Positions 62,454 to 64,000 of a stretch of DNA of 64,000 nucleotides are shown one piece after another. Both the position numbers and the translations under genes were made by a program. The DNA is taken from assembly GCA_947478685.1 (NCBI GenBank), contig CANJWO010000001.1:32092-96091 (forward strand), in the 5' to 3' direction. Source of the DNA: Chlamydiota bacterium (GTDB lineage: Bacteria; Chlamydiota; Chlamydiia; Chlamydiales; 2-12-FULL-49-11). The notes beneath the pieces were generated by a model. It was given only the letters and a program-made list of their open reading frames with translations, had not been told where the DNA came from and did no database searches. Position 1 is the stretch's first letter. Each line of letters opens with the position of its first letter.

Positions 62454-63572
62454 ATGGAACCAATAGATACACCACCAAAAGTCCCTCTAAGCCGTCCCTC
62501 GAAAGAGGAAACCCCTGCAGATCGTCATAACATAAGAGCCTCAAGGATTTGCGAAACAATCTTAAAAGAGGCAAACACATCCAATATGGCAAGACTCAAG
62601 GTAGACTTTGCTGCATTTTGTAGCTCAATATTAAAAAACGCAACAACACCACCCGAATTACTAGCAAAAATTGAAGCTGCACGAGCCAAATTGGATTCAC
62701 TAGAAACTGCGTCTGCAGCTGTATCTGCACCTCCTCCCCCAAGAAGGGAACGAATTGAAGCAGCTCCGCGACCCGGTTTCCCTCTTCCATTGGATGTCCC
62801 AGCCACACCCGCCCTCTTAGCTAAAGCTGAGCGCATTGTTGCAACAATAAATAGTAGTGCAAACCGTGCAAATGCTCCACTATATCTGACAGGACTTGAT
62901 GACATATGTTATCAATTGCTAGGAAAAACCAATATCCCCCCCACACTAGCAGAACATCTAAGAGGATCTTATCAATTGCTGGTAGCTATTGTAACAGGAC
63001 ATACTTCAAGGAGACCAACTCTCCTTGCATCAGATCTTGAAGCAACACCTGATCGCCTCCGCAAAGCTATAGCCCTATGTGCAATAATAAAAACGAAAGT
63101 AGAGACTTCCGATGCTCGTTCATTAAAGATAGAACTCGACGAAATGTGTTATTATCTTGTCGGGAAAGGCAATGTCCCCCCACTCCTAGCAGAACATCTA
63201 AGAGAATGTAATTATAAACTTTTAGCTATCTCAACAGGAGCCCCATTGCCAAAAGAGAGCAGTGCACCTTTACAAGCTTCAATGCTTCGCGCTGAAGAGG
63301 CAACAGCCGCTGCAATGCCCACACCTATATCAAGAGCTCCGCCACCGATGCTGAGCGCTGCAGTTAGTCCTCATACAAAAGCACATGAAATTTGCGAAGA
63401 AATTTTAAATGTAGATTTAGATGTTTCGAATATTGTGAAATATAGAGAAACTTTTAATCAAGAATGCCTCCCTCTATTAGCCGATGCAGCACTACCAGTC
63501 CGGGTAAGAACTGAAATAAAAAGTGCAAATAGTCTTCTTCAACTTGTTGAGAAAGACCTTGGCATAAAATAA
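62454..63572 (+). CDS. Hypothetical protein built from helical repeats with Pro/Ala-rich linkers (effector-like)
   Basis: 372 aa with no signal peptide. Two clear ~80-aa repeats have a DNA period of 240 nt (62881 vs 63121) and share an 18-nt identity, TAGCAGAACATCTAAGAG. Local GC reaches 52-63%. Confidence 0.7.
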   Translation: MEPIDTPPKVPLSRPSKEETPADRHNIRASRICETILKEANTSNMARLKVDFAAFCSSILKNATTPPELLAKIEAARAKLDSLETASAAVSAPPPPRRERIEAAPRPGFPLPLDVPATPALLAKAERIVATINSSANRANAPLYLTGLDDICYQLLGKTNIPPTLAEHLRGSYQLLVAIVTGHTSRRPTLLASDLEATPDRLRKAIALCAIIKTKVETSDARSLKIELDEMCYYLVGKGNVPPLLAEHLRECNYKLLAISTGAPLPKESSAPLQASMLRAEEATAAAMPTPISRAPPPMLSAAVSPHTKAHEICEEILNVDLDVSNIVKYRETFNQECLPLLADAALPVRVRTEIKSANSLLQLVEKDLGIK

Positions 63573-63639
63573 CTTATAGTTAATTGGAGGGTAATTTGGG
63601 TCCGTATGAAGAAGAATTTTAACTTGGGCTTAAAATAGT

Positions 63640-64000
63640 ATGGAACCATTTGACAATCGATCCACGCATCCCATTTTTCCCGCGCGGAAACCTTCACCTG
63701 AATCATTAGATAAGATATCTCGCCTTTGTGACGAAATCGAAGCGCGAGTAGCCTTGTCAAATATTAAAAAATATGGAGCAATATTTTCTAGAGAATGCGC
63801 ACCCTTTCTTAAATCTAAAAGTATTAACACTGAGTTACTTGCAAAAATTAATGCAACAAAGGCCAAACTAAACCAGGTATATCAAGAGCTTTTGACACCT
63901 CCTCGAAGAAGTTCTGGAGTACGATCAGGAAAACCACCTACTCATCCTGGTTTACCCAAAGGTAAACTTTCTTCATCAACTCATTCATTGCCTATAGATT
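63640..64000 (+). CDS. Paralog of the preceding repeat protein (5' part; runs off the window)
   Basis: Own translation: MEPFDNRSTHPIFPARKPSPESLDKISRLCDEIEARVALSNIKKYGAIFSRECAPFLKSKSINTELLAKINATKAKLNQVYQELLTPPRRSS.. It aligns with the N-terminus of 62454..63572. Confidence 0.65.
   Translation, partial: MEPFDNRSTHPIFPARKPSPESLDKISRLCDEIEARVALSNIKKYGAIFSRECAPFLKSKSINTELLAKINATKAKLNQVYQELLTPPRRSSGVRSGKPPTHPGLPKGKLSSSTHSLPID

Follow-up and report, generated by a model that had tools for sequence, protein, structure and literature searches.

P1 and P2 of an uncultured freshwater chlamydia: paralogs with a new predicted three-helix module in a variable gene slot, and candidate type III secretion effectors

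Introduction

Bacterial effectors that combine helical parts with proline-rich segments have been described in chlamydiae and in pathogenic E. coli. SemD, an effector of the C. pneumoniae type III secretion system (T3SS), is a protein of 382 aa with a helical core and flexible proline-rich segments that bind host SH3 domains, and it binds several host partners at once, namely the SH3 domain of SNX9 and N-WASP (PMC11344771). EspF and EspFU (TccP) of pathogenic E. coli, which are also delivered by a T3SS, have tandem repeats of a helical element and a proline-rich stretch, whose number sets the potency of the protein by way of multivalency; these repeats are highly alike and are intrinsically disordered until bound (PMC2567903, PMC7973643), and those of EspFU act synergistically (PMC2567903). 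Here we describe two adjacent genes, P1 and P2, lying at the end of a 64,000-nucleotide stretch of a Chlamydiota genome (assembly GCA_947478685.1, contig CANJWO010000001.1, positions 32,092 to 96,091), which is called the window below and to whose numbering coordinates refer unless otherwise indicated. P1 and P2 are real protein-coding paralogs of a narrow clade of uncultured freshwater chlamydiae; they share a helical module that, as modelled, has not been described before, and they are considered here as candidate effectors.

P1 resembles SemD in logic rather than by homology: both are chlamydial proteins of similar size, with all-helical folded parts, flexible proline-rich segments and no Sec signal, whereas the core of SemD is a single one of nine helices, accompanied by WH2 domains and a membrane-binding amphipathic helix, and not a tandem three-helix array. 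Neither phmmer nor a Foldseek comparison with the PDB, which holds SemD structures, found any similarity of P1 to SemD. The likeness to EspF/EspFU, again one of logic and not of homology, lies in a repeated helical element paired with a proline-rich stretch; no sequence similarity was found, and the P1 modules, unlike the E. coli repeats, are 17-43% identical to one another, about 60 aa long and predicted to fold autonomously as bundles. Highly similar proline-rich repeats of ~47 residues, the mark of EspF/EspFU, do not occur in P1, where the period from the second to the third module (B to C) is 80 aa and no repeat was reported by Tandem Repeats Finder (TRF). A further mark of the E. coli class is binding of the N-WASP GBD and of an SH3 domain by each repeat; P1 has a single PxxPx[RK] motif.

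Staphylococcal protein A and proteins of the Efb-C/Sbi type resemble P1, as modelled, in arraying three-helix bundles of ~60 residues, which in those proteins are host-protein-binding units. They carry Sec signals, and protein A also a cell-wall anchor, whereas P1 lacks both a signal peptide and any Pfam match, and its non-significant structural match to Efb-C appears to reflect a generic fold. Nearer in phylogeny, a study with 'massive expansion' in its title outlines lineage-specific F-box, BTB and LRR effector families in environmental chlamydiae (PMC4209131). As presented in that outline, these families are, like P1 and P2, accessory, lineage-restricted in environmental chlamydiae and thought to be host-targeting; they have recognisable eukaryote-like domains and very high copy numbers, whereas here the domain is new and two genes are seen. 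With their module, P1 and P2 form a family that is new in sequence and structure but of a familiar kind, that of lineage-specific modular candidate effectors of intracellular bacteria.

Organisation of P1 and P2

P1 (62454-63572, + strand) starts with an ATG and encodes an orphan protein of 372 aa in which a disordered N-terminus precedes four three-helix modules, each joined to the next by a Pro/Ala-rich linker, with a composition of 13.7% Ala, 9.7% Pro and 6.5% Arg. The N-terminal region (residues 1-27; 62454-62534), a candidate secretion signal, is followed on the same strand by module A (residues 28-86; 62535-62711), linker 1 (residues 87-123, SAPPPPRRERIEAAPRPGFPLPLDVP; 62712-62822), module B (residues 124-183; 62823-63002), linker 2 (residues 184-203; 63003-63062), module C (residues 204-262; 63063-63239), linker 3 (residues 263-308; 63240-63377) and the C-terminal module D (residues 309-369; 63378-63560). 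These boundaries come from a profile hidden Markov model (HMM) built from 10 modules, which recovers module A with an independent domain E-value of 6e-24. P1 is intact in the metagenome contig L001 (ENA ERZ28613056), which is 99.6% identical to the window over a shared 11.5 kb, and has an ortholog of 283 aa in the related locus L059 (Logan SRR21358417), where the linker 3 stretch SRAPPP(M/L)LS is kept in the alignment.

P2 (63640-64000, +) starts with MEPFD and is cut by the window end; its full copy in L001 (positions 11187-11858 of that contig) gives a protein of 223 aa, with one module (residues 25-84; 63712-63891), a Pro-rich linker and an unrelated C-terminal half, which both Smith-Waterman and hhalign comparison with the module profile showed not to be a degenerate module. 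An N-terminal motif, M-E/D-P-I/F-D..P..P, is common to all five family members, the rest of the proteins having diverged to 28-52% identity, and within the first 25 residues each N-terminus has 8-11 Ser/Thr/Pro and at most one Leu.

A new three-helix module

When segments of P1 and P2 were compared by Smith-Waterman alignment with 300 shuffles per pair, the z-score was 22.8 for B-C, 14.4 for A with the P2 module, 12.4 for D with the P2 module, 10.1 for A-D, 8.0 for A-C and 6.2 for A-B, and the observed score was reached by no shuffle for A-B, A-C, A-D and B-C. The pairs B-D (z 3.1) and C-D (z 1.3) are weak alone and are connected via module A. The module alignments are collinear and nearly gap-free, and phmmer relates P1 to P2 with E = 1e-6. 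Two proposals of the original prediction, drawn from the letters of the window, are borne out by these scores and by the HMM: that the open reading frame (ORF) at 62454-63572 holds at least four related modules, and that the ORF from 63640 is its paralog. The repeat unit of ~80 aa that it described holds for the B-to-C period, the folded core being shorter (~60 aa) and the module starts in P1 being spaced 96, 80 and 105 aa apart; the PP..LLA motif that it assigned to each module is missing from module D. Readings of the 'PP-LLAKI' helix as a WH2 domain, an LD motif or a vinculin-binding site were considered by eye and rejected, the spacing not fitting the WH2 LKKV and modules B to D being without it.

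AlphaFold2, run on full-length P1 with a three-sequence alignment, predicts four units of three helices each with a predicted local distance difference test (pLDDT) score of 70-90, set apart by segments scoring below 50 at residues 1-18 and, within linkers 1, 2 and 3, at residues 88-112, 184-197 and 264-303. Module A, modelled from an alignment of 8 modules, reached a pLDDT of 84 and a predicted template-modelling score of 0.65, with helices at positions 2-20, 26-42 and 48-72. As modelled, the module is a previously undescribed three-helix bundle of ~60 residues, and disordered Pro/Ala linkers join its copies like beads on a string, much as had been proposed when helical modules with Pro/Ala-rich linkers were first noticed here. 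Foldseek searches of the PDB and BFVD with the full-length and single-module models brought back nothing beyond helical bundles of a generic sort, none of them a significant match (a designed binder, Efb-C, GAT domains and spectrin repeats); the best E-value against the PDB was 0.79, and the Efb-C match had E 4.5 and template-modelling scores of 0.43-0.48.

Across the 10 modules exactly one residue per helix is invariant (I36, C56 and L80 in P1 numbering), and we infer that the three form one core layer of the bundle. The cysteine of helix 2 is accordingly present in all 10 modules and that of helix 1 in 8 of the 10; the module cysteines stand at residues 33, 56, 152, 209, 232, 314 and 338 of P1 and 30 and 53 of P2. 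This conservation stands out in a protein of which roughly every second position differs from one sister lineage to another; possible roles are core packing, a disulfide, metal binding or lipidation.

Modules B and C are in a register of exactly 240 nt, in which B starts at residue 114 and C at residue 194, and they share the 18-mer TAGCAGAACATCTAAGAG, found only at 62947 (62947-62964, in B) and 63187 (63187-63204, in C) against a chance expectation of 0. Both observations had been made beforehand and were confirmed, but the duplication had also been called recent, which does not agree with identities of 43% in protein and 57% in DNA or with the absence of any 240-nt or other DNA tandem repeat in the TRF output. 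Site patterns were compared among three sequences, the B and C modules of the window and the one B module that the nearest relative has; the three are mosaic and almost equally far apart, with 44, 36 and 30 informative nucleotide sites supporting the respective groupings, which suggests that the B/C duplication is about as old as the lineage split; local gene conversion has perhaps blurred its signal. Homopolymer tracts of seven and six C (62936-62942 and 63176-63181) fall within Pro-Pro codons, the first in module B and the second in module C; neither differs in length in the 99.6%-identical contig, so that the two sequences available give no sign of phase variation.

Searches for relatives agree with the original suspicion that the repeat belongs to no known family. 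No Pfam or NCBIfam family was matched at E <= 1 by P1, by P2 (partial or full length) or by the module of the relative in locus L002, and single modules gave only chance-level matches to these databases (best E 0.043). PHROGs and PADLOC returned nothing for P1, P2 or single modules, and PDB sequences nothing for P1 (phmmer, none below E 0.46) or the 10-module profile. A word-indexed search of 5.8 billion proteins found only copies of P1 and P2 that were 99-100% identical, exhaustive phmmer against 1.84 billion representatives added one further protein (P0097, a 52% identical ortholog of 283 aa), and a scan of JGI metagenomes with the P1 alignment found no relative.

A variable slot and fast sequence change

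The gene upstream of P1 (61219-62400, +), which lies outside the P1/P2 family and forms the left border of a variable slot, encodes a conserved outer-membrane-like protein of 387-393 aa with a signal-peptide-like N-terminus and no Pfam match. Its 94 homologs, with identities of 33-99%, come from Chlamydiota metagenome-assembled genomes (MAGs), and 2 of the 94 are tagged PF16930; the product is probably a conserved, uncharacterised chlamydial outer-membrane protein family. With this gene as anchor, whose homologs form a graded series, 57 loci were fetched from GTDB genomes, and further metagenome contigs were added. Five lake-water MAG records among them (L002, L012, L013, L015 and L016) are titled 'Chlamydia trachomatis'; their anchor proteins are only 49-83% identical to that of the window and place them among environmental chlamydiae, and the titles are apparently wrong labels.

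Slot content varies between lineages. The window and L001 (anchor identity 99-100%) have P1 with four modules and P2, and L059 (90%) has a P1 ortholog with three modules and a P2 ortholog of 118 aa. L002 (83%) has a single gene, whose product shares the N-terminus and carries a single module but ends differently; its C-terminal half is unrelated and, by hhalign against the module profile, not a degenerate module. One unrelated protein of about 494 aa occupies the slot in L003, L064 and L065 (78%), two unrelated paralogs on the opposite strand occupy it in L004 and L067 (74%), and it is empty in L005 and L060 (71%). None of the replacement genes has a Pfam match. In L001, P2 is followed by a convergent gene for a transporter of the MFS_3 type (L001 11855-13594), then by recC, a protein kinase gene and another MFS (major facilitator superfamily) gene; P2 thus stands directly before the MFS_3 gene, and there are two paralogs rather than a longer series. 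The module HMM, applied to the six-frame ORFs of the window and of 64 of the 67 fetched loci, found no extra copy; the short contigs L061 and L063 break off close to where the outer-membrane gene has its stop codon, and L064, which ends 1.7 kb past that gene, was scanned by HMM only. The expanding family that had been supposed is therefore not what is seen. The slot between the outer-membrane-like and MFS_3 genes looks like a gene-turnover hotspot.

Between L001 and L059, ten flanking genes have a ratio of nonsynonymous to synonymous rates (dN/dS) of 0.01-0.17 at dS 0.21-0.63. P1 has a dN/dS of 0.69 at dS 0.55, which is within the range of its neighbours, with 52% aa identity, and P2 a dN/dS of 0.41 at a saturated dS of 2.27, with 28% aa identity; these ratios are 4 to 70 times those of neighbouring genes, and housekeeping neighbours remain 87-99% identical between lineages in which P1 and P2 differ at about half of their residues. 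The same contrast is present at short range: of the 43 single-nucleotide differences that separate the window from L001, P1 and P2 together account for 9 nonsynonymous and 1 synonymous, and the flanking genes for 6 and 23 (Fisher p = 2e-4).

High dN/dS would also be found if the two ORFs were decaying, spurious or non-functional remnants in an intergenic slot that accumulates junk, and the very narrow distribution, the shortening of P2 to 118 aa in L059 and the empty slot of some lineages would fit as well. Both ORFs are, however, intact in three lineages about 0.55 apart in dS, and not the frameshifted remnants against which the original prediction had warned. The P1 ortholog of L059 lacks exactly one 80-aa unit, which covers the latter half of B and the initial two thirds of C (alignment residues 175-239), and this in-frame gap is the sole large indel, so that module copy number, whose comparison had been called for at the outset, differs between related lineages (four in the window, three in L059). 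In the modules, the large hydrophobic and Cys positions show 70% identity between orthologs, against 49% at other positions (p = 0.014), a pattern to be expected of folded domains whose surfaces are free or diversifying. The AlphaFold2 fold is confident even with a shallow alignment, and the low GC at third codon positions (GC3) together with the strong GC gradient between codon positions indicates a translated frame. Decay is, on this evidence, improbable.

Base composition bears also on the proposal that the genes were recently acquired from a GC-richer or eukaryotic donor, at which the original prediction had hinted. The GC peak that prompted it is real at small scale: the highest value for 60 nt in the window, 0.65, lies at 62757 in linker 1 (0.61 for 100 nt and 0.56 for 150 nt). 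Over the whole P1 ORF, however, GC is only 0.433, against 0.393 for the window. P1 has a GC of 0.57, 0.48 and 0.25 at codon positions 1, 2 and 3, and its GC3 is below the 0.29-0.35 of native neighbours; the excess at positions 1 and 2 is due to Ala, Pro and Arg codons, that is, to amino-acid composition, and a compositional peak with an AT-rich third position argues against a foreign origin. Moreover, no homolog was found in any other taxon in the protein databases or the JGI metagenome scan, and no tRNA or mobile-element signature flanks the slot. Horizontal acquisition is thus very improbable. An antisense ORF of 126 aa (62525-62905, -) overlaps the GC-rich Ala/Pro linker region of P1 and is most likely a by-product of composition rather than a gene.

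Export and the candidate effector role

Neither P1 nor P2 has a Sec signal or a membrane segment, and no hydrophobic segment was found in either, the maximum Kyte-Doolittle mean over 19 residues being 0.76 for P1 and 0.44 for P2; with residues 1-18 of P1 below a pLDDT of 50, this agrees with the absence of a signal peptide and the disordered N-terminus claimed at the outset. Chlamydial inclusion membrane (Inc) proteins, recognised by a bilobed hydrophobic domain of ~40 or more residues, were considered and rejected, since these hydropathy maxima are far below those of a membrane segment.

Given the surroundings of the slot, P1 and P2 might instead belong to the envelope or the cell surface, either exported jointly with the neighbouring outer-membrane protein or using a TpsB-like transporter or a type II secretion system (T2SS) as their route. 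P1 starts 54 nt downstream of the outer-membrane-like gene on the same strand, a gene for an outer-membrane transporter of the ShlB/POTRA_2 (TpsB-like) type, conserved in all related loci, lies just upstream of that gene (59409-61136, -), and the T2SS genes for GspF (T2SSF), GspE (T2SSE) and GspD (secretin) are in the window at 35739-40919 (-). The chlamydial envelope is disulfide cross-linked, and an invariant cysteine in each module could fit such a location. Both T2SS and two-partner secretion require a Sec signal, and with no signal peptide or hydrophobic segment in P1 or P2 export by these routes is disfavoured. P1 and P2 also have no two-partner secretion (Haemagg_act) domain by Pfam, the mark of a TpsA passenger, and the outer-membrane and TpsB-like genes are kept in lineages without P1 and P2, which means that they are not dedicated partners. 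An envelope location has little likelihood. The TpsB-like gene itself has no TpsA-like passenger gene adjoining.

Chlamydiae are obligate intracellular bacteria. A T3SS has been inferred for their last common ancestor (PMC9816063), so that the phylum assignment suggests its presence in the producing organism, although none of the 25 window ORFs scanned was identified as a T3SS gene and T2SS genes were found there instead. Given an obligate intracellular life and an ancestral T3SS, the most economical reading is that P1 and P2 are T3SS substrates working as multivalent adaptors in the host cytosol. As candidate effectors of this kind they are a tenable proposition, to which we give a little less than an even chance. 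The unstructured N-terminus would be the signal for export by the chlamydial T3SS, and inside the eukaryotic host each three-helix bundle would contribute one unit for binding a host protein, P1 and P2 thereby acting as multivalent adaptors. The proline-rich linkers would extend the range of these units and could be docking sites for SH3, WW, EVH1 or profilin-type domains; a single strict class II SH3-type motif (PxxPx[RK]) is present in P1, as PPPPRR at residues 93-98. Avidity would be set by the number of modules, and module surfaces would diversify with the host as the hydrophobic core stays fixed.

Several observations weigh against the effector reading. No T3S chaperone gene adjoins P1 and P2, and the ortholog has PPSPKD in place of the SH3-type motif, which is thus not strictly preserved. 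Overall, dN/dS stays below 1, and regional partitions, noisy and of small sample, give no region clearly above 1, so that positive selection is no more than suggested. The fold resembles only generic three-helix bundles, from which no target can be inferred. At a database size of 1.84 billion a member as diverged as P2 would escape detection; absence elsewhere is therefore not proven and the family may be larger than counted. Finally, fast evolution, few homologs and disorder are equally typical of non-secreted orphan genes under weak constraint.

That last point leads to the principal rival, by which P1 and P2 are non-secreted, lineage-specific bacterial proteins, such as a cytoplasmic scaffold or a developmental-cycle factor, that change fast through weak constraint. 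Orphan genes in general evolve fast, the dN/dS of P1 lies marginally below 1, and the missing chaperone gene would need no explanation. In a bacterial housekeeping protein of the cytoplasm, however, Pro-rich disordered linkers and in-frame changes of module number would be out of the ordinary; moreover, paralogs that have otherwise diverged keep the N-terminal motif, and the slot turns over between lineages. We consider this rival unlikely, if still a serious contender. A broader form of the effector reading holds that a new domain from one genus-level clade of environmental chlamydiae makes up a new, tunable multivalent type III effector family, for which the slot would be a per-lineage effector cradle; units with an invariant core cysteine would then bind a host target, and the family would track the host both by gaining and losing modules in frame and by diversifying their surfaces. 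So much taken at once is rather doubtful.

Genomic surroundings

The wider window is chlamydial in character. It encodes a topoisomerase I with a C-terminal SWIB/MDM2 domain (50481-52982, +), and a TopA-SWIB fusion is a chlamydial hallmark. Chlamydiota MAGs are also the source of all homologs of the genes around P1 and P2. No tRNA lies near the slot, and a promoter and terminator scan around P1 and P2 gave sites no more numerous than in shuffles. Further away, at 25371-34780, three large proteins of repeat or adhesion type stand in a row, namely a TPR protein of 954 aa, a VWA-domain protein of 1155 aa and a MORN_2-repeat protein of 831 aa (minus strand, E 1e-52), which may be further host-interaction candidates.

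Concluding remarks

Practical impact is limited for now, the organism being uncultured, and the finding has no bearing on a long-standing open question. If secreted, P1 and P2 would bring a new domain family to the few chlamydial effectors that are understood in structure, and they would offer a compact example of a multivalent host-binding protein built by duplicating a small folded unit in an obligate intracellular bacterium. The hypervariable slot is arguably as noteworthy as P1 and P2 themselves: with the same flanks and a different orphan cargo in each sister lineage, the locus is a clean natural experiment, of use in studying the birth and turnover of effector genes in environmental chlamydiae.

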